Shown here: positions 42,765 to 52,097 of the stretch, piece after piece
Position numbering within the stretch: the first letter of the stretch is position 1
Layout of the letters: each line of letters opens with the position of its first letter
Source of the DNA: Nitrospinota bacterium
Lineage (GTDB): Bacteria > UBA8248
Direction of reading: 5' to 3'
Length of the DNA stretch: 64,000 bases
Assembly (NCBI GenBank): GCA_046581755.1
Contig: JAYGFR010000103.1
Span: 1 to 64,000 of the forward strand
Notes under the pieces: generated by a model
Databases searched by the model: none
What the model was told of the DNA's origin: nothing
What the model saw: only the letters and a program-made list of their open reading frames with translations
Program-made: the position numbers and the translations under genes

Positions 42765-42951
42765 GGCACACTCCCCCGGTTCGAATTTCCGGCTCTGGAA
42801 ATCGCCACTTTGAAACCCGCCGTTTTTGTAGATCCCCACAAAGCCTACTTCGCCTCCCGGCGCCGGGCAAACCCGTCCGCCCGCATTGACAGTGCGAAGC
42901 TCCCCGGAGGAACATGGCTCCCAATCCATTTCCTTTTCGACGGAGCGAGAA

Positions 42952-44124
42952 ATGACGCCGCAGACCGAAACCCCCCTGCCCTTCGACCTCACCGAGCCCC
43001 AGCAAATGCTCCGCAAGATGGTGCGCGAACTGACCGAGCGCCACATCGCTCCCCGGGCCGCCGAGATCGACGAGCGGGACGAATACCCCGAGGACATCTA
43101 CCAGCTCCTCAAGGATCACGGGCTCCTTGGCATATTCTTTCCCGAGGAATACGGCGGCGGGGGCATGGGGTTTTTCGGCGGCTGCATCGCCGTCGAGGAG
43201 ATCGCCCGCTTCTGCTCGAACAGCCTCATCCCCATCGTCCTCAACATGCTCGCGAGCCGCGTCATCGACCTGAGCGGAACCGAGGAGCAGAAAAAACACT
43301 ACATGACCGGTCTCGCCAAGGGCGAGCTCCGGGGCTCCTACGCCCTCACCGAGCCCCATGCCGGCTCCGACGCCGGGAACATCCGCACCCGCGCTGACCT
43401 CGAGGGGGAGGAATGGGTGATCAACGGGCAAAAGGCCTTCTGCACCGGCCCCGACAAGGCGGACTTCATCACCGTGGCCGCCAAGACGGACCCCTCGGCG
43501 GGAACGCGGGGGATCACCTACTTCATCGTGCCCACCGACACCCCCGGCTTCAGCGTCGGCCGCCACGAGCGGAAGATGGGCATGCGGGGCGTTTCCACCT
43601 GCGAGCTGATTTTCGAGAACGTGGCCATCCCCAAGGAGAACCAGGTCGGCGAGGTGAACCGGGGCTTCAAGACCGCCATGATCGGTTTTAACCAGATGCG
43701 CCCGGTCATCGGCGCGCGCGCGGTGGGCCTGGCCCAGGGCTGCCTCGACTACTCCCTCGGCTACGCCAAGGAGCGCGAGGCCTTCGGGGTACCCATCGCC
43801 CAGCACCAGGCCGTCCAGTTCATGCTCGCCGACATGTTCCTCGACATCGAGGCCGCGCGGCTGCTCGTCTACCGGGCGGCGGCGCTGGTGGACGCGGGGA
43901 AGATCGGAAAAGAGAACGCCCGCTACTTCTCGGCCGCCAAGACCTTCGCCGCCGACATGGCCATGAAGGTGGCCATCGACAGCATCCAGGTCCTCGGCGG
44001 GGCGGGCTACATGAAAGACCACCCGCTCGAGCGCTTCATGCGCGACGCCAAACAGATTCAAATCGTCGAGGGCACCAGCCAGATTCAGCGCATCATCATC
44101 GCCCGCAACCTGCTGGACTTGTGA
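42952..44124 (+). CDS. Acyl-CoA dehydrogenase
   Basis: YALTEPHAGSD, WVINGQKAF, KMGMRG, QVLGGAGY, RDAKQIQIVEGTSQIQR. Confidence 0.95.
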   Translation: MTPQTETPLPFDLTEPQQMLRKMVRELTERHIAPRAAEIDERDEYPEDIYQLLKDHGLLGIFFPEEYGGGGMGFFGGCIAVEEIARFCSNSLIPIVLNMLASRVIDLSGTEEQKKHYMTGLAKGELRGSYALTEPHAGSDAGNIRTRADLEGEEWVINGQKAFCTGPDKADFITVAAKTDPSAGTRGITYFIVPTDTPGFSVGRHERKMGMRGVSTCELIFENVAIPKENQVGEVNRGFKTAMIGFNQMRPVIGARAVGLAQGCLDYSLGYAKEREAFGVPIAQHQAVQFMLADMFLDIEAARLLVYRAAALVDAGKIGKENARYFSAAKTFAADMAMKVAIDSIQVLGGAGYMKDHPLERFMRDAKQIQIVEGTSQIQRIIIARNLLDL

Positions 44125-44290: not shown

Positions 44291-44683
44291 GTGCCCAAAG
44301 AGCAAATCGTCCCGGAAACGGTAAAACCCGTCGCGGCCTATTCCACCGGATTCAAGGTCTCGGGCGGGAGCCTCATCATGCTCGCGGGCATGGTCTCGGC
44401 CGACACCGAGGGCAACACGGTCGGCGAGGGCGACATCGGCGCCCAGACCCAGAAGGTGTTCGACAATATCCGGGAAACGCTCGAGGCCGCCGGCGCGGGC
44501 TTGAAGGACATCATCCGCCTCACGGTCTACCTGACCGACCGGGCGGACTTTCCGGGCCACATGAAAGTGCGCTCGGGGCTCCTCACCGAGCCCTACCCGG
44601 CGAGCACCCTGCTGATCATCAGCGGCCTCGCCAGGCCCGAGTGGCTTGTCGAGATCGATACCGTCGCCTTCATCGAGGATTAA
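44291..44683 (+). CDS. RidA/YjgF-family protein
   Basis: AYSTG, GDIGAQT, LTVYLTD, YPASTLL, LARPEWLVEID. Confidence 0.88.
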   Translation: MPKEQIVPETVKPVAAYSTGFKVSGGSLIMLAGMVSADTEGNTVGEGDIGAQTQKVFDNIRETLEAAGAGLKDIIRLTVYLTDRADFPGHMKVRSGLLTEPYPASTLLIISGLARPEWLVEIDTVAFIED

Positions 44684-44692
44684 CCGCAGGCC

Positions 44693-45559
44693 ATGAACGC
44701 TCAGAGCCAGGACCGCTCCCCGCGCGAGGCCCTCGTCATCGTCAAGGGCGCAGGCGATCTCGCCACCGGCATCATTCACCGCCTGTGGCGGAGCGGGTTT
44801 CCGGTCATCGCCACCGAGATTGAAAACCCCACCATGGTGCGGCGGACGGTCTCTTTCGCCGAGTGTCTCTACGCGGGGCGCCACACCGTCGAAGGCGTGG
44901 CGACCGAGCGCGCTGAGGGCGCCACGGTGGCCGAGAAACTCGCGTCCGCCAGAAAACTCCTCGATACGGGAACCCTGCCCGTCGTCATCGACCCGGGCGC
45001 GGAGATCGTCCCCCTCGCGCGGCCGGCCGCCCTGGTGGACGCCATCATCGCCAAGCGGAACCTGGGGACCCGGATCGATCAGGCCGAGGCGGTGATCGGA
45101 ATTGGGCCCGGCTTTACCGCCGGGGTGGACGCGCACGCCGTCATCGAGACCGCCCGCGGGCACGATATCGGCCGGGTCATCCTCGATGGAGGGGCCGAGC
45201 CCAACACGGGCGTTCCGGGCCCGATCGGGGGCTACACGGTGGAGCGGCTTTTGCGCGCTCCGGCGGCGGGCGCCTTCGAGCCGCGCACGGCCATCGGCGA
45301 TGCGGTCCGGGCGGGCGATGTCGTTGCGGTGGTGGGCGGCGCCGAGGTGAAGGCCGGGATCGACGGGGTTCTCAGGGGGCTTCTCCGCGAGGGAATCGAG
45401 GTCACCGAAGGTTTTAAGGTGGGCGACGTGGACCCGCGCGCGAAGACCTCGCACTGCCATACGATATCGGATAAATCGCGCGCCATCGGGGGCGGAGCTC
45501 TCGAGGCCATCATGATGTTTCTTTTTGGGGTGGAAACCGCCGCGGAGCAAACGCATTGA
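44693..45559 (+). CDS. yqeB: Selenium-dependent molybdenum hydroxylase system protein YqeB (EF2563 family)
   Basis: VKGAGDLATG, PTMVRRTVSFAE, VDAIIAKRNLGT, IGIGPGFTAG, IETARGHDIGRV, KVGDVDPR, ISDKSRAIGGG. Confidence 0.92.
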   Translation: MNAQSQDRSPREALVIVKGAGDLATGIIHRLWRSGFPVIATEIENPTMVRRTVSFAECLYAGRHTVEGVATERAEGATVAEKLASARKLLDTGTLPVVIDPGAEIVPLARPAALVDAIIAKRNLGTRIDQAEAVIGIGPGFTAGVDAHAVIETARGHDIGRVILDGGAEPNTGVPGPIGGYTVERLLRAPAAGAFEPRTAIGDAVRAGDVVAVVGGAEVKAGIDGVLRGLLREGIEVTEGFKVGDVDPRAKTSHCHTISDKSRAIGGGALEAIMMFLFGVETAAEQTH

Positions 45560-46443
45560 GCATCGAGACCTTTACCGAAGTCGTCGAAAACGGGACCTAC
45601 CGGATCGGGCGGAGCGTCATTTCGATCAACCATGAGAACGAGGACAATCCGTTCGTCCCCGGCCCGCAGTTCTACATTTCCGCCGGGAACTCGCTTGAGC
45701 GGATATCCTGGGCGGTCAGCCAGAGTCTGCCCGTCCTCCTGGTGGGCGAAACCGGGGTGGGCAAAACGCTCTCGATCCGCCATCTGGCCCACATGACCCG
45801 GAACGGCTTCCGCCGCGTCAACCTGAACGGGATGACCACGGTGGACGAGTTCGTCGGCAAGCTCATGATCAACGAAAAGGGCACCTACTGGATCAACGGC
45901 ATCCTGATCGAGGCGATGGAGGCCGGCGACTGGCTTCTCATCGACGAGATCAACGCCTGCCTGCCCGAGATCGCCTTTTGTCTCCACAGCCTGCTCGACG
46001 ACGACCGGATGATCGTCCTCTCGGAGTACGACGGGCGGATCGTGCGCCCCCACCCGGATTTCCGCCTCTTCGCCAGCATGAACCCGAACGAAAACCGCCG
46101 CTACGGCGGAACGAAACCGCTCAACGAGGCTCTGCTCGACCGCTTTCCGCTCACCCTGAAGATGGACTACCTCCCCTTCGACGCGGAGGTCGAGGTGACC
46201 ATGCACCAGAGCGGAAACGAAGACCGGGCGCTTGTCGAGCGGATGGTCCGGGTGGCGCAGGATGTCCGCGAGGCCATGGAAAACGAGAAAATATTCTCCA
46301 CCTTCAGCACCCGGAGGCTCATCGACTGGGCGCGCATGGCCGCGCAGTTCGATCCGATGGAAGCCGCCACCTCGACCATCTTCAGCAAGGTCAATCCGTT
46401 CGATGCGAAGGTGATCGAGGACATCCTCGACAACCACTTTTAG
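45556..46443 (+). CDS. MoxR-type AAA+ ATPase (CbbQ/NirQ/NorQ/CobS-like)
   Basis: Walker A GETGVGKT, Walker B WLLIDEIN, HPDFRLFASMNP, EALLDRF, STRRLIDW; TTGA overlap with the yqeB stop. Confidence 0.9.
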   Translation: MSIETFTEVVENGTYRIGRSVISINHENEDNPFVPGPQFYISAGNSLERISWAVSQSLPVLLVGETGVGKTLSIRHLAHMTRNGFRRVNLNGMTTVDEFVGKLMINEKGTYWINGILIEAMEAGDWLLIDEINACLPEIAFCLHSLLDDDRMIVLSEYDGRIVRPHPDFRLFASMNPNENRRYGGTKPLNEALLDRFPLTLKMDYLPFDAEVEVTMHQSGNEDRALVERMVRVAQDVREAMENEKIFSTFSTRRLIDWARMAAQFDPMEAATSTIFSKVNPFDAKVIEDILDNHF

Positions 46444-46455
46444 GCAGGCCACGGC

Positions 46456-48228
46456 ATGGAACCCCGCCGAAACCGCCTCGAAATCCTGGCCCAGGTCGCC
46501 GCGCACGACTACGAACTCGATCTGCGCTACGGCGACACCGGCCGCCAGGAAAAGAAAACCATCCATATCGAAGACCCGGAGCGCACCCTCGATCGGCTCA
46601 GGGGCGAGCTGAGCGATGCGCACGTCATCCGCTACCAGAAGGGAATGACCCTCATCGAGGTGGCCCACCGCCTGGAGGGGACGCTTCGCTGGGCCCTCCG
46701 GGCCGCCCGGGCCAGCCGCGAGCGTCCGGGCCTGTTTCAAATCTGGCACGCCGTCGAGGATGCACGCTGCGAGAACCGCCTGGCGGCCACGCTTCCGGGG
46801 ACGCGCAAGAATTTCATCGAGTTCATCCGCCCGGCCCTGAAGGAGGCGGAAATTCTCCACGCCCGGGGCGAGCTCTCGCTTTTCTTCCAGGTCCAGTGGG
46901 GGCTCTACCTGATCGGGCAGGGAATCGAGCCGGGGACGCGCGCGCCGGAGCCCAGCCATTTCGACACCCTCTGGCTGGAGCCCGGTGTCCTCGAATTCTT
47001 GGACGAGCTGAGACCCCTCGCCGTGCGGGCCGGCCAGGCCGATGGCCCGGCCGAGGCGTTCGAGTGCGCCGAGGCGCTCTACGCCGCCATCCGCGAGCGC
47101 CTGCCCGAGGAGCTTCTCTCCGAGGCCCTGCAGGATCTCCCTATCCCCGATATCCCCGAGGAGGTGCTTGAGAGGGCGGAGAATCAAGAAACCGCCGGCG
47201 CGGAGGGAGAGATGGAGGAAACCTTCGCCGCCGACCTGTCGGACACGGACGCCGAAATCGACGAAGAGGCCTTCGAGCTCACCGAGGAGGAGCTTTCCGC
47301 GCTCGGCCACTGGGCCAGCCCCTGGTTCGAGTTCAAGGGCCACTCGAAGGATATCCATCCCTCGGCGGTCCGCTCGGACGAGGGCACGATATTCATCCCG
47401 CCCGAGGGGAAATCCGAGGAATACCAGGCGATCGTCAATAACGCGAGCAGCCAGATCAAGGTGCTCGCCCTGAAACTGATGCAAATCATCCAGGAGCGGC
47501 GCTACACCCGCTACAGCGGCTCGTTCCGCTCCGGAAAACTCAACACCCCCAAGCTGTGGAAGCAGCGCCTCGGGAAATACCACCTCTTCCTCCGCCGCGA
47601 GAACCCCGAGCGCCTCGACATCTGCTTTACCCTGCTGGTGGACGAGAGCGGCAGCATGAACCGCGAGTCGAAATACCTGGCCGCGCGCGAGGCCACCGTC
47701 TTCTTCGCCGAGGTGCTCGACCGGGTGGAGGTCCCCTTCGAGGTCATCGGCTACTCGACCGAAAGCTCCGAGGCGGCGATGGCCGCTTCGCTGGGCCACG
47801 TGCCGGCCTTCAAATACCGCCACATCCGCCACTCCCCGCTCCAGCACAGAATTTACAAGGGCTTCGACGAGCCGTTTCAAGGCGCCAAGAACCGGCTCGT
47901 GAACATCCACCCCCGGTTCAACAACTGGGACGAGGAGCACCTTCAGTTCGCATACCGGCGGCTCCTCGGGAGGAGCGAAGCCGAGAAGGTCATCATCATC
48001 ACCTCGGACGGCCAGCCCAACGGCGATGCGAGCCATCTGGTCGAAACGGTCCACCGCCTTGAAAAACTCGGCGTCCGCATCATCGGCGTCGGCGTGGTCG
48101 ATCCCTTCGTCGAGCAGATTTACCCCAACTTCATCGTCGTCAAGCATCTCGATCAGCTTGCCGAGGAGCTGGTGGAGATTCTCCGCAGCGAGCTTCTCCG
48201 GAGCGGAAGGGGTGGCCGGGCCTCGTGA
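46456..48228 (+). CDS. VWA-domain protein (NorD/CbbO/CobT-like)
   Basis: AVEDARCE motif, acidic linker, SGKLN, MIDAS LLVDESGSM, IIITSDGQP, IIGVGV. Confidence 0.88.
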   Translation: MEPRRNRLEILAQVAAHDYELDLRYGDTGRQEKKTIHIEDPERTLDRLRGELSDAHVIRYQKGMTLIEVAHRLEGTLRWALRAARASRERPGLFQIWHAVEDARCENRLAATLPGTRKNFIEFIRPALKEAEILHARGELSLFFQVQWGLYLIGQGIEPGTRAPEPSHFDTLWLEPGVLEFLDELRPLAVRAGQADGPAEAFECAEALYAAIRERLPEELLSEALQDLPIPDIPEEVLERAENQETAGAEGEMEETFAADLSDTDAEIDEEAFELTEEELSALGHWASPWFEFKGHSKDIHPSAVRSDEGTIFIPPEGKSEEYQAIVNNASSQIKVLALKLMQIIQERRYTRYSGSFRSGKLNTPKLWKQRLGKYHLFLRRENPERLDICFTLLVDESGSMNRESKYLAAREATVFFAEVLDRVEVPFEVIGYSTESSEAAMAASLGHVPAFKYRHIRHSPLQHRIYKGFDEPFQGAKNRLVNIHPRFNNWDEEHLQFAYRRLLGRSEAEKVIIITSDGQPNGDASHLVETVHRLEKLGVRIIGVGVVDPFVEQIYPNFIVVKHLDQLAEELVEILRSELLRSGRGGRAS

Positions 48229-49043
48229 GCGCCGGCGCGCTGTCCGGGGCCATCGGGCTCGGGCCCGGCCAGATTCTCGCGGCCGCCGGGGGCGGGGGTA
48301 AGACCAGCCTGCTCCGGGCGCTTGGAGAGGAATGCCACGCCGCCGGGATGCGCCCGGCCATCCTCACCCCCACCACCCACTTTTTCTCCCCCGAGCCGGC
48401 CGGGGAGGCCCCCCTTTTCCTGGGAGAGGTGGAAGCGGTGGACGCCCGCCTCCGCGAATACGGCGGGGAGTGGCCGGGCCCCCTCACGCTGGCCCGGCGG
48501 CGGACGGGGGAATCCCCCGTACCGGGGACGCCGGGCGAGAGGCGGATGAAGATGGGGGGGTATCGCGCCGATGAGATCGAACGCCTCCGCCGGCCGGGCG
48601 GTGTCGTCCTCGTGGAGGCGGACGGCGCGCGCGGGCTTCCGATCAAGGCGCCCGGACCGGACGAGCCGGTGATTCCGCCCGGGGCGGACATCGTCCTCGG
48701 GGTGGTGGGTCTGGATGCGCTCGGGGGGCCGATTGACGAAGCCCATGCCTTCCGCCCGGAAATCCTCTCTTCCCTGACCGGCCTCCCGCTCGGCGCTCCG
48801 GTGGATGCCGCGGCCATCGGCTGCCTCGCCGCCCACCCCGAGGGGCTGTTCCGGGGCGCCCCGAAATCCGCCCGGCGGGTCCTGATATGCAACAAATCCG
48901 ACCGGATCGGGCGGATGGAAAAACCGGAGCAAATCGGTTATATTATTGCGGAAATTGCATGTGCCCCGAACGGGCCGGCGGATCTGCTTCTTTTTACAGC
49001 ATGCCTTCCGTCCGGCCTCCGGGTGGGGCGGCCGGTTCCATAA
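48225..49043 (+). CDS. yqeC: Selenium cofactor biosynthesis protein YqeC
   Basis: GGGGKTSL, TPTTHF, LVEADGARGLPIKAP..DEPVIP, VVGLDALG, HPEGLF, ICNKSD; GTGA overlap with the VWA gene stop. Confidence 0.9.
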   Translation: MSAGALSGAIGLGPGQILAAAGGGGKTSLLRALGEECHAAGMRPAILTPTTHFFSPEPAGEAPLFLGEVEAVDARLREYGGEWPGPLTLARRRTGESPVPGTPGERRMKMGGYRADEIERLRRPGGVVLVEADGARGLPIKAPGPDEPVIPPGADIVLGVVGLDALGGPIDEAHAFRPEILSSLTGLPLGAPVDAAAIGCLAAHPEGLFRGAPKSARRVLICNKSDRIGRMEKPEQIGYIIAEIACAPNGPADLLLFTACLPSGLRVGRPVP

Positions 49044-49111
49044 ACGGTGAAAAATCGACGGACCGATAAATGCGCCGCCGAACGCGGGGGCGAGAAAAGG
49101 ACCAATCGGAA

Positions 49112-50260
49112 ATGAGCAAAGACGTTTTTAAGGAAATGTCCGAGTTGAAGGAAAAAGGAACCCGCGGCGCCATCGCCACGGTCGTATCGAGGAAGGGCTC
49201 CGCTCCCATGAGCGGGGACGCCAAGATGCTCGTCCGCGAGGACGGAAGCACGATGGGAACCGTGGGCGGCGGATGCCTCGAGGCCGAGGTCTGGCAGACG
49301 GCGATGAACATCATCGAGGATGGCAGCCCGGAAAAGGTCTCCTTCGACCTGACCGCCGACGAGGCCGGGGACAGCGGTCACATCTGCGGCGGAACGGTGG
49401 AAATCTTCATCGAGCCCTTCGACGCCTACGATCCCGGCCTCCTCGCCGAGATCCTCGATGTCCGGAACCGTGGCCAAAGCGCCGTTCTGGCCACGGTGGT
49501 TCAGGTGGGGAGCGGGAAGGAATCCTCTCCCGATCAAAGGAAAATGCTAGTGAAGAGGAGCGGGACCATGATTGGCGAAATCCCCGATTTCGCCGCCGAG
49601 ATATGGCGTGAAAGCGGCCAGATCATGCGCCAGGGTCAGCCCTCACTGATGCAGTTTTGGGCCGGGGACGATCGCCCGGGGGCCAAGCGCCGCTCCGCCG
49701 GGGATGCGACAGAAATTTTCGTGGAGCCGATCACGGCCCAGCCGCTGGTCTACCTGTTCGGCGGCGGGCACGTCTCCTACTGCGTGGCGCTGGCCGCCCA
49801 GATGGCCGGGTTCCGGATCGCCGTCGTCGAGGACCGGCCCAGCTTCGCCAACAAGGAACGGTTCCCGATGGCGGAATCGTTCTATGTGGGCGAGCATCCC
49901 GCCATTTTCGACGAAATCCCGGTGGACGAATCCAACTACCTCACCATCATCACCCGCGGCCATGCAAATGACGAGATCATCCTGGAGTGGGCGCTCAAGA
50001 CCCCGGCCCGCTACATCGGCATGATCGGCTCAAAGAGCAAGGTTCTGCTGACCTACCGCCACCTGCGGGACAAGGGCTTCGACATGGACGAGATCATCCG
50101 CCGCGTCCATGCCCCCATCGGTCTCGACATCGGCGCCGACTCTCCCGGCGAGATAGGAATTTCCATCGCGGCCGAGTTCATCCGCCTCCGGCGCCAGGGG
50201 GAGGAAGCCATGCAGGACGCCCTTTCCAGCAAGAAAATCAACCTTCGGAAAAAATCTTGA
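49112..50260 (+). CDS. xdhC: XdhC/CoxF-family molybdenum hydroxylase accessory protein
   Basis: ATVVSRKGSAP, GTVGGGCLEA, ICGGTVEIFIEP, LFGGGHV, ITRGH, YIGMIGSK, APIGLDIGADSPGEI. Confidence 0.93.
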   Translation: MSKDVFKEMSELKEKGTRGAIATVVSRKGSAPMSGDAKMLVREDGSTMGTVGGGCLEAEVWQTAMNIIEDGSPEKVSFDLTADEAGDSGHICGGTVEIFIEPFDAYDPGLLAEILDVRNRGQSAVLATVVQVGSGKESSPDQRKMLVKRSGTMIGEIPDFAAEIWRESGQIMRQGQPSLMQFWAGDDRPGAKRRSAGDATEIFVEPITAQPLVYLFGGGHVSYCVALAAQMAGFRIAVVEDRPSFANKERFPMAESFYVGEHPAIFDEIPVDESNYLTIITRGHANDEIILEWALKTPARYIGMIGSKSKVLLTYRHLRDKGFDMDEIIRRVHAPIGLDIGADSPGEIGISIAAEFIRLRRQGEEAMQDALSSKKINLRKKS

Positions 50261-50297: not shown

Positions 50298-51082
50298 ATG
50301 CAGCGGTTTCTCAATTTATTGTCCGGCCTCTCCGATATTATTCTCCCGCGCTCGTGCCCCACATGCGGCGGCGCGCTACCCTTCGGGGGCGGCAGAGCCA
50401 TATGCGAAACTTGCCTGGAGGCGCTCGAGCGGACCTTGCCCCCCTGGTGCCCCGTATGCGGAAAACCGTTCCGCTCGGAATTCACCCTCTCCTATTCCCC
50501 GGACCACCTTTGCGCCGAGTGCCGCGAATGGCCGCCGGATTTCGATGGGGCCCGCGCCCTGGGCCCCTACGATGGCGCCCTTCGTAATCTGGTTCATCTG
50601 ATCAAATACCACGGCTACACCTCCCTTGCCGCCGAGCTGGGGGTAGAACTCAGCCAGCGGGCCCGGCAGGAATTTCCCGGTGCCGCTGATGCGGGAGACG
50701 GATTGATAACGTTCGTTCCCATCGCCCGGAAACCTGGAAAGAGCGCGGCTTCGATCAGGCCCGGCTTCTCGCCCAGAGCACCGCCGGGCGCCTGGGAGTG
50801 GCATTCGCGCCCACTCTCGAGAGGAGAGCCCCCTCGGCCCCCCAGACACGCCTGACGGCCAAGCGGAGGAGAAAAATCCTGCGCGGCGTTTTCTCCTCTC
50901 TCAACCCGCCCGCCTCGGAGGGGAAACGGGTCATTTTGATCGACGATGTTCTGACAACCGGCTCGACGGCCTCGGCCTGCGCCCGGGAACTCAAAATAGC
51001 GGGTGCATTATCCGTAAGTGTCTTGACCATTTGTCTTACTGTGATAAAAGGAATTCAGAATTTAATATTTTATTTATGCTGA
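50298..51082 (+). CDS. comF: ComF-family phosphoribosyltransferase, one frameshift (~50727)
   Basis: Four CxxC motifs, IKYHG, reconstructed KERGFDQA, ILIDDVLTTGSTASACA. Confidence 0.88.
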
Positions 51083-51171
51083 GAGTTATCTTAACTGCAA
51101 GAATTTAAAATGGTTAAGTCATGCAATGCAAATAGTTAAAAAAGGTAAATATATTTAAATAAAAAAAATAC

Positions 51172-51200
51172 TTGAAATAATTATGGGTAAAGCGTATTTT
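51172..51200 (+). promoter_or_regulatory. sigma70-type promoter with upstream A-tracts
   Basis: TTGAAA-N17-TATTTT in a very AT-rich 250-bp intergenic stretch. Confidence 0.55.
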
Positions 51201-51338
51201 TGAATTTATAATTTAGGGAGATTTGAGGATCTCAGGGTTTATTTAACCCCAAACAGTCCGTAATATGGTGAAGCTAGGAAATGGAGCGAGTGGCCATAGG
51301 TTCTACTACTGGACTATGCGAAACGGAAGTGGAGAACG

Positions 51339-52097
51339 ATGAAATTACGCCTCGAAAAACCCAGAAGAGAAGCGATCGGAGCCCGGCTCAGGGAGATTCG
51401 GCTCTTCAATAAACTCGAGCAAACCGAGCTTGCCGATCGTGCGGGCCTTTCTCAGGCCATCATCAGCCAGTACGAAAAAGGTCTCACCGAAATCAGTCTC
51501 TCGTTCATCAAGTTCCTGGCCGATAACTTCAACATCTCGGGCGATTGGCTCATTTTCGGCACCGGCGAGTCGCCCCACGAGCAATCCCAAAAAGAAATCG
51601 AGCTCCGCCTCCCGAAAAGCCTCGGCGGCGCCTCCGTGAAAGGAAGAAAAAAGTCGGGATTTTTCGGCATCCCCATCGTGGACCCCAAATCAGCCGCCAG
51701 GCCCGGCAAGGTCCAGAATGAGCAGATCCAGGATTGGGAAATCGTCCGGCTTCAAGAGGCCACGGGCCGCAACAACCTCGTCGCCCTGGAGGTGAGGGGT
51801 GACTGGGTGAAAAACATGGACGCCCCCTTCCGGGCGGGCGGACGCATCGTCATCGATCGCGATGATAAGAAAGTGCGCCACGACGCCTTTTACGCCGTGA
51901 ACAAGGCCATCAAGAAAAAAGCCCCGCGCGACGCCAGCATCACCGGAATCCGCCGCCTCAGCATGAGCGGCTCCCGGCTCTGGTTCGTCGAGGATCGCCC
52001 CGGCAAGGAATTCGAATTCATGGACCTCAAGGCCAGCGACCGGATCGAAAACATCATCATCGGCCGGGTCATCTGGGTCTGGCAAAAGATGATCTAG
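51339..52097 (+). CDS. XRE-family HTH regulator with a degenerate S24 (CI/LexA-like) C-terminal domain
   Basis: IGARLREIR...QTELADRAGLSQAIISQYEKG, WLIFGTG; LEVRGD, RIVIDR, IRRL, IIGRVIW. Confidence 0.85.
   Translation: MKLRLEKPRREAIGARLREIRLFNKLEQTELADRAGLSQAIISQYEKGLTEISLSFIKFLADNFNISGDWLIFGTGESPHEQSQKEIELRLPKSLGGASVKGRKKSGFFGIPIVDPKSAARPGKVQNEQIQDWEIVRLQEATGRNNLVALEVRGDWVKNMDAPFRAGGRIVIDRDDKKVRHDAFYAVNKAIKKKAPRDASITGIRRLSMSGSRLWFVEDRPGKEFEFMDLKASDRIENIIIGRVIWVWQKMI

Follow-up and report, generated by a model that had tools for sequence, protein, structure and literature searches.

The 64,000-nucleotide stretch analysed here, referred to as the window (contig JAYGFR010000103.1 of assembly GCA_046581755.1, from a Nitrospinota bacterium placed by GTDB in UBA8248), carries an operon in which genes for a MoxR-type AAA+ ATPase and a VWA adaptor lie between yqeB and yqeC and are followed by xdhC. 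This AAA+/VWA system is real, conserved and apparently undescribed. Given that the pair stands within a conserved operon of molybdenum-enzyme helpers and, in a second phylum, behind a molybdenum enzyme, it is likely that it opens such enzymes so that their active site can be loaded or restored. By analogy with characterised pairs, we favour, at a probability of about 0.55, the reading that the pair is an ATP-driven remodeller which loosens xanthine-oxidase-family enzymes for the loading or completion of their chalcogen-bearing molybdenum cofactor. That it has some role in molybdenum-hydroxylase biology, with remodeller, selenium step and reactivase taken jointly, is highly probable. The link of the pair to molybdenum hydroxylases is strong and a selenium-specific link is weaker: the pair tracks molybdenum hydroxylases better than it tracks selenium. 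The five genes of the operon are as follows.

44693..45559, forward strand: yqeB, marker of the labile-selenium molybdenum-hydroxylase trait (TIGR03309, 349 bits, cut-off 220), single copy in the genome

45556..46443, forward strand: MoxR-type AAA+ ATPase, 295 aa, TTG start (Pfam AAA_5, AAA_3 and CbbQ_C)

46456..48228, forward strand: CobT/NorD-type VWA adaptor, 590 aa (CobT_C domain)

48225..49043, forward strand: yqeC, with P-loop GGGGKT (TIGR03172, 143.5 bits, cut-off 73; PF19842)

49112..50260, forward strand: xdhC, molybdenum cofactor chaperone (PF02625, XdhC_CoxI, and PF13478, XdhC_C)

Coordinates, domains and NCBIfam scores agree with the arrangement given in a preliminary description of the window, in which the five genes run in this order with two 4-bp overlaps and a 12-bp gap. 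The overlap of yqeB with the ATPase gene is TTGA (45556-45559), that of the VWA gene with yqeC is GTGA (48225-48228), and the gap between the ATPase and VWA genes spans 46444-46455; an alternative upstream ATG start for xdhC is possible at 49070. The GC content at third codon positions is 0.86-0.88 for the pair and 0.81-0.89 for the neighbouring genes, and there is thus no sign of recent insertion. The same description had seen no cob, nor or cbb client and no molybdenum-hydroxylase structural gene in the window, and tblastn with the hydroxylase large subunit, CobN, NorB/C and RbcL likewise gave no match there or on the rest of the contig. Four metatranscriptome runs yielded short, low-depth contigs scattered across the region, none of them spanning the operon and all open to DNA carry-over, and they do not count as evidence of expression; a promoter and terminator scan returned weak consensus matches only.

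The linkage of yqeB to the pair, first noticed in the window, is conserved across the host's class. In a search of 61 genomes, which included 45 relatives from the class and 15 outside genomes, the VWA gene was found in 42/45 relatives and 0/15 outside genomes, and yqeB in 43/45 and 3/15 respectively. All 30 loci fetched from this search read yqeB-AAA-VWA, an arrangement that is therefore not due to chance, and 28 of them continue into yqeC-xdhC, the other two meeting a contig edge. A GTDB-wide scan gave 82 matches, of which 80 were kept: 43 class loci, 27 loci from 26 genomes of the Anaerolineae (Chloroflexota) and 10 distant Vibrio loci of CobT type. The Vibrio loci were rejected as family members on account of their CobS/CobT-like position in the tree. 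Within the class, yqeB lies directly 5' of the ATPase gene in every locus with upstream DNA (38/38), with a 4-bp overlap, as estimated from alignment, in 31 of them, and yqeC-xdhC lies downstream of the pair in 36 of the 41 loci with downstream DNA. The five exceptions are of the type of one family, f4, and yqeC-xdhC forms a separate locus in the f4 genomes checked.

XdhC is encoded by a single copy in 32 of the 35 class genomes that possess it, and matches to the molybdenum-hydroxylase large subunit number 4-6 in small genomes and reach 54-74 in family f4. Given one XdhC against 4-74 such matches, the operon is to be regarded as a shared maturation kit and not as an appendage of one enzyme. 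The expansion is extreme in three f4 genomes (G042, G043 and G044), where 54-74 large-subunit matches occur in 3-6 Mb with a single XdhC. Two further f4 genomes, G039 and G040, which belong to one genus and are 95% complete, have jointly lost the molybdenum-hydroxylase domain, yqeB, xdhC and the VWA gene, and have kept selD.

The preliminary description had associated the pair with selenium-dependent molybdenum hydroxylases, and a search of the host genome (96.5% complete) recovered both selD and candidate clients. The large-subunit domain has 16 matches on 15 host contigs, which puts the number of molybdenum hydroxylases at about 15; selD has an in-frame TGA and is accompanied by tRNA-Sec, and is thus not an orphan. 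In this genome yqeB, the ATPase gene, the VWA gene and xdhC are each present once. One host large subunit (C212:707-3013) reads GGRYG where GGxFG/GGxYG is the usual motif, and a second, divergent YqeC-like gene of 31% identity lies distant from the operon (C43:4312-4962).

Outside the host's class the pair was found only in Chloroflexota, mainly Anaerolineae, apart from one Actinomycetota protein. The Anaerolineae ATPases are 60-69% identical to that of the window, and in 22 of the 23 loci that hold the ATPase its gene follows an operon for an FAD subunit, an iron-sulphur subunit and a split molybdenum subunit, within ~600 bp in 20 of those loci. The split subunit consists of a large part (L, ~435 aa) and a medium part (M, ~334 aa); their best PDB matches are, in turn, the large (3hrd_A) and the medium (3hrd_B) subunit of nicotinate dehydrogenase from E. 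barkeri, an enzyme with the same split layout. In 13 of the 27 loci xdhC stands 6-7 kb downstream, in five a gene for a MoeA-like molybdopterin-binding protein stands immediately 3' of the VWA gene, and yqeB or yqeC is present in none of the 27. The genes around the Anaerolineae pair suggest, from their predicted functions, sugar or sugar-acid catabolism, and the substrate of this hydroxylase is therefore probably not nicotinate. At L056:272-18660 and related loci the operon starts with an IolB-like isomerase, a DapA-like aldolase, a zinc dehydrogenase, a lactonase and the split molybdenum hydroxylase, after which come the pair, an aldehyde dehydrogenase, a 2-hydroxyacid dehydrogenase, an epimerase, a transketolase-like protein and XdhC.

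Among 301 sampled Anaerolineae the VWA gene occurs in two, and the same two have the closest orthologues of this hydroxylase (100% and 78%, the next being 58%), one of them being the genome on which the search was centred. A metagenome scan returned 67 loci, 58 of them at family level, and among these the M subunit lies upstream in 28 and yqeB in 12, four have yqeC-xdhC downstream only and 14 are cut by a contig end; the metagenome loci and the genome set share members and do not count as independent. Two divergent members of the VWA family are P0075 (MBI2238022.1, the Actinomycetota protein) and P0073, from another Chloroflexota genome, and the metagenome scan did not return the DNA of either locus.

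By sequence, the pair stands as a separate family, with CobS/CobT as its nearest neighbours and CoxD/CoxE at a great distance. On the VWA side this family is compact, with 67 proteins at 34-99% identity and the next level at 26-27%. In a tree of 44 ATPase rows the window family forms its own clade (91/86), sister to CobS (98/94) and apart from NorQ and CoxD, and approximately unbiased (AU) tests reject a clade of the family with CoxD (p-AU 0.016) or with NorQ (p-AU 0.026). These tests used a quick LG+G4 tree that kept 26 of the rows; the 18 rows omitted include two very long branches, and long branches remain in the tree. The preliminary description had proposed a comparison of the ATPase with CoxD, NorQ, CbbQ and CobS, and in this comparison the ATPase separated from CoxD and from NorQ, the latter represented by two rows; the nearest relatives proved to be CobS/CobT, yet their client CobN is not tracked, and the trees were built without CbbQ rows. 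The Anaerolineae ATPases nest with family f4 (98/98). Monophyly of the class rows was not rejected (p-AU 0.36), and for this reason no donor of a transfer is claimed.

[quoted passage not shown] However, the window proteins reach only 85 bits against the TIGR01650 cut-off of 559 and 53 bits against the TIGR01651 cut-off of 759, and the window pair is not beside cob genes. An assignment of the pair to cobaltochelatase CobST was rejected on these scores and on the want of co-occurrence with CobN. With CoxD, CoxE and CoxF of Oligotropha/Afipia carboxidovorans (pHCG3) the system shares the grouping of a MoxR ATPase, a VWA protein and an XdhC near an enzyme of the xanthine oxidase family, and coxDE follow coxL just as the Anaerolineae pair lies directly 3' of the molybdenum subunit. 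The differences are that the window ATPase is only 25% identical to CoxD (E 0.002), that CoxE scores only 3 bits against the window VWA profile, that the client of the window family is not form I CoxL, and that yqeB and yqeC are present in the window operon. The host, furthermore, carries two other ATPase/VWA pairs, on contigs C356 and C229, whose identity to CoxD is 56% and 47%. The identification of the window pair as CoxD/CoxE was rejected given these separate CoxD-like genes, the 25% identity and the AU test. The two CoxD/CoxE-like pairs lie at C356:11703-15454 and C229:3132-5576, the former after genes for FAD and iron-sulphur subunits with no large subunit seen adjacent. NorQ/NorD and CbbQ/CbbO have the CbbQ_C domain in common with the window ATPase, and the former supplies the best fold match of the VWA protein; they are the source of the mechanistic model below. 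They differ in being 26-29% identical to the window pair, and in the host genome Rubisco gave no PF00016 match and NorB no tblastn match. The pair appears to work like CoxD/CoxE and is a member of none of CoxDE, CobST, NorQD and CbbQO, and convergence with CoxD/CoxE in role is the best reading.

The predicted anatomy of both proteins is that of a MoxR AAA+/VWA chaperone pair. The ATPase is a clade-7 MoxR AAA+ domain with an intact motif set (Walker A GETGVGKT, Walker B LLIDE, sensor I ASMNP, arginine finger ALLDRF and sensor II STRR). The VWA protein is laid out as a helical N-domain (~1-230), an acidic disordered linker (~246-289), a finger region (~351-385) and the VWA domain (389-584), and in an AlphaFold2 model (mean pLDDT 78) the helical N-domain is followed by the acidic linker, which is disordered, then by a long helix, a finger region of low confidence and a VWA fold. 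The MIDAS residues D396-S398-S400...N490...D518 are invariant across 37 aligned VWA sequences. The best Foldseek match of the model is the NorD VWA domain (9qh6) and the best profile match of the protein is CobT (9uka). In both motifs and predicted architecture the pair matches NorQD and CobST as described in PMC13036017 and 10.64898/2026.10.09.757910, and the finger region, the MIDAS and the adjacent ATPase together place it among the MoxR AAA+/VWA chaperone pairs.

For NorQD, a section of PMC13036017 describes a finger in the pore, proposes the MIDAS and the N-domain as two holds, and has ATP turnover twist the target open so that iron can be inserted. If the pair acts as NorQD and CobST do, the window ATPase would form a hexamer whose pore is threaded by the finger of the adaptor, the MIDAS of the adaptor would grip an acidic surface residue of the molybdenum subunit with the N-domain as a second hold, and ATP turnover would twist the two holds apart, loosening the folded enzyme around its buried cofactor. 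XdhC, joined by YqeB/YqeC and SelD in those cases that use selenium, would then supply the cofactor or its terminal sulphur or selenium ligand. Within the host's class, a pair encoded in a single shared operon may serve many hydroxylase paralogues, and in the Anaerolineae it may serve the one enzyme encoded directly upstream. A precedent is given by CoxD, which according to a passage of PMC4240915 is required to sulfurate [MoO3] within folded CO dehydrogenase.

Several points weigh against the proposed remodelling of molybdenum hydroxylases. PMC4240915 also states that large thiols reach CO dehydrogenase's active site freely, which challenges the need for an opening chaperone. Neither five class genomes (best 44%) nor the host (34-43%) yielded a close orthologue of the Anaerolineae enzyme, so the candidate clients differ between the two lineages, and a client common to both was rejected. 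Related split enzymes of 53-58% identity occur in Anaerolineae genomes that do not have the pair, which indicates that most molybdenum hydroxylases mature without it. The two CoxD/CoxE-like pairs of the host could do the same job, the joint loss in G039 and G040 is one event in one genus, and client binding by the pair is argued from analogy.

The remodelling reading has to be set against a selenium-specific step, in which the motor acts together with YqeB, whether by remodelling YqeB itself or by opening the enzyme for it, so that the Mo-Se ligand is installed in place. The junction of yqeB with the ATPase gene is the most conserved of the operon and survives in family f4, where yqeC-xdhC is elsewhere; the best solved relative of the Anaerolineae client, the nicotinate dehydrogenase, is listed as selenium-dependent in a portion of PMC2276186; and pair-bearing Anaerolineae have selD in 25/26 and yqeB in 23/26 genomes, given a yqeB baseline of 171/301. 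However, this enrichment of yqeB (23/26 against 169/299, p=0.001) was rejected as evidence, as it vanishes once kinship is controlled: within one Anaerolineae family yqeB occurs in 11/13 pair-bearing and 65/85 other genomes (Fisher p=0.73), with pair status taken from the GTDB-wide scan, which may miss some. No pair was found in 169 of the 171 yqeB-positive Anaerolineae, nor in any of the three yqeB-positive genomes outside the host's class; the former count means that it is not a general or obligate part of the selenium-cofactor trait. In the pair-bearing Anaerolineae, moreover, yqeB-yqeC adjoin a different molybdenum hydroxylase, which yqeB follows in 23/23 loci, and similar split enzymes occur in three genomes with no yqeB above the cut-off (G134, G149 and G325). 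A selenium-specific step is thus unlikely, as is the particular form of it in which a motor derived from cobaltochelatase opens folded molybdenum hydroxylases for YqeB to install the ligand in place. The preliminary description had suggested that the pair opens an apo-molybdenum-hydroxylase for selenium or cofactor loading; the molybdenum part of that suggestion is borne out by the conserved linkage and the Anaerolineae context, and the selenium-specific part is opposed by these comparisons. None of the outcomes which that description had named as refuting it came about: the linkage is present in related genomes, the pair does not follow the clients of CobS/CobT or NorQ/NorD, and the genome has both selD and molybdenum hydroxylases.

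Two further possibilities would assign the motor a different task. Like the Rubisco activase CbbQ/CbbO, a machine of the same type, the pair might free an inhibitor or a damaged (desulfo or deseleno) cofactor from assembled hydroxylases, with XdhC reloading them. This would accord with the pair being dispensable for most related enzymes and with the lability of the terminal ligand, described as established within PMC2276186; it is improbable given that the pair is embedded among biosynthetic helper genes. The pair might instead be a CobST motor, or act on some other non-molybdenum client such as the product of the acyl-CoA dehydrogenase gene upstream, and merely share the operon. CobS/CobT are the nearest characterised relatives, the host does have cobN, and the acyl-CoA dehydrogenase gene is conserved upstream in family f1. 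Yet, apart from the low scores already given, among 37 class relatives only 5 yielded cobN, against 34 of the same 37 with the VWA gene, and no cobN was found in 29 of the 34 that bear the pair; the cobN of the host is followed by a different AAA-domain gene; the acyl-CoA dehydrogenase gene is missing from all f4-type and Anaerolineae loci; and a chance link is unlikely to recur beside molybdenum-hydroxylase genes in two phyla. CobN as client is largely refuted, and the whole of this explanation is very unlikely.

Upstream of the operon lies one further gene, which is peripheral to it.

44291..44683, forward strand: Rid/RidA-family gene (PF01042), ending 9 bp before yqeB

In a comparison of neighbourhoods this gene is kept in most of family f1 and missing in several lineages. 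The acyl-CoA dehydrogenase gene (42886-44124 in the window) is conserved to an unusual degree upstream of the operon in family f1, at 73-91%, and in some genomes it immediately precedes yqeB (loci L081, L082 and L084). On the 3' side of xdhC a ComF/GntX-like gene is split into overlapping open reading frames at 50298-50855 and 50798-51082, possibly by a frameshift or an assembly error, and AT-rich intergenic DNA with promoter-like matches lies at 51000-51340, upstream of a helix-turn-helix regulator.

The preliminary description knew of no such pair within a yqeB/yqeC operon, and no description was found among open papers in PubMed Central or in bioRxiv, subscription journals lying outside that scope. 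A review of the sulfido ligand from 2026 mentions none of YqeB, YqeC, CoxD, CoxE and AAA. The host carries all three markers (SelD, YqeB and YqeC) of the selenium-dependent molybdenum hydroxylase trait, but an AAA+/VWA component is absent from the descriptions of that trait in the relevant parts of PMC2276186, PMC5029168 and PMC11448449, and most genomes with the trait do not have the pair. How selenium enters these enzymes is described as unknown in a passage of PMC11448449. The pair is lineage-restricted and therefore cannot be a universal mechanism of selenium insertion; were it nonetheless a selenium-insertion machine, a single operon would let one lineage operate its hydroxylase paralogues, tens of them (up to ~70 per genome), as selenoenzymes. 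In the literature found, the only enzyme of the xanthine oxidase family with an AAA+/VWA helper is the Mo-Cu CO dehydrogenase. With the window family, such a motor would have been recruited to these enzymes a second time and independently, from the CobS/CobT side and without implying a copper step. The Anaerolineae operon offers a defined enzyme-motor pair open to a direct test of cofactor loading, and the system as a whole suggests a probable role for proteins that databases label cobaltochelatase CobS.

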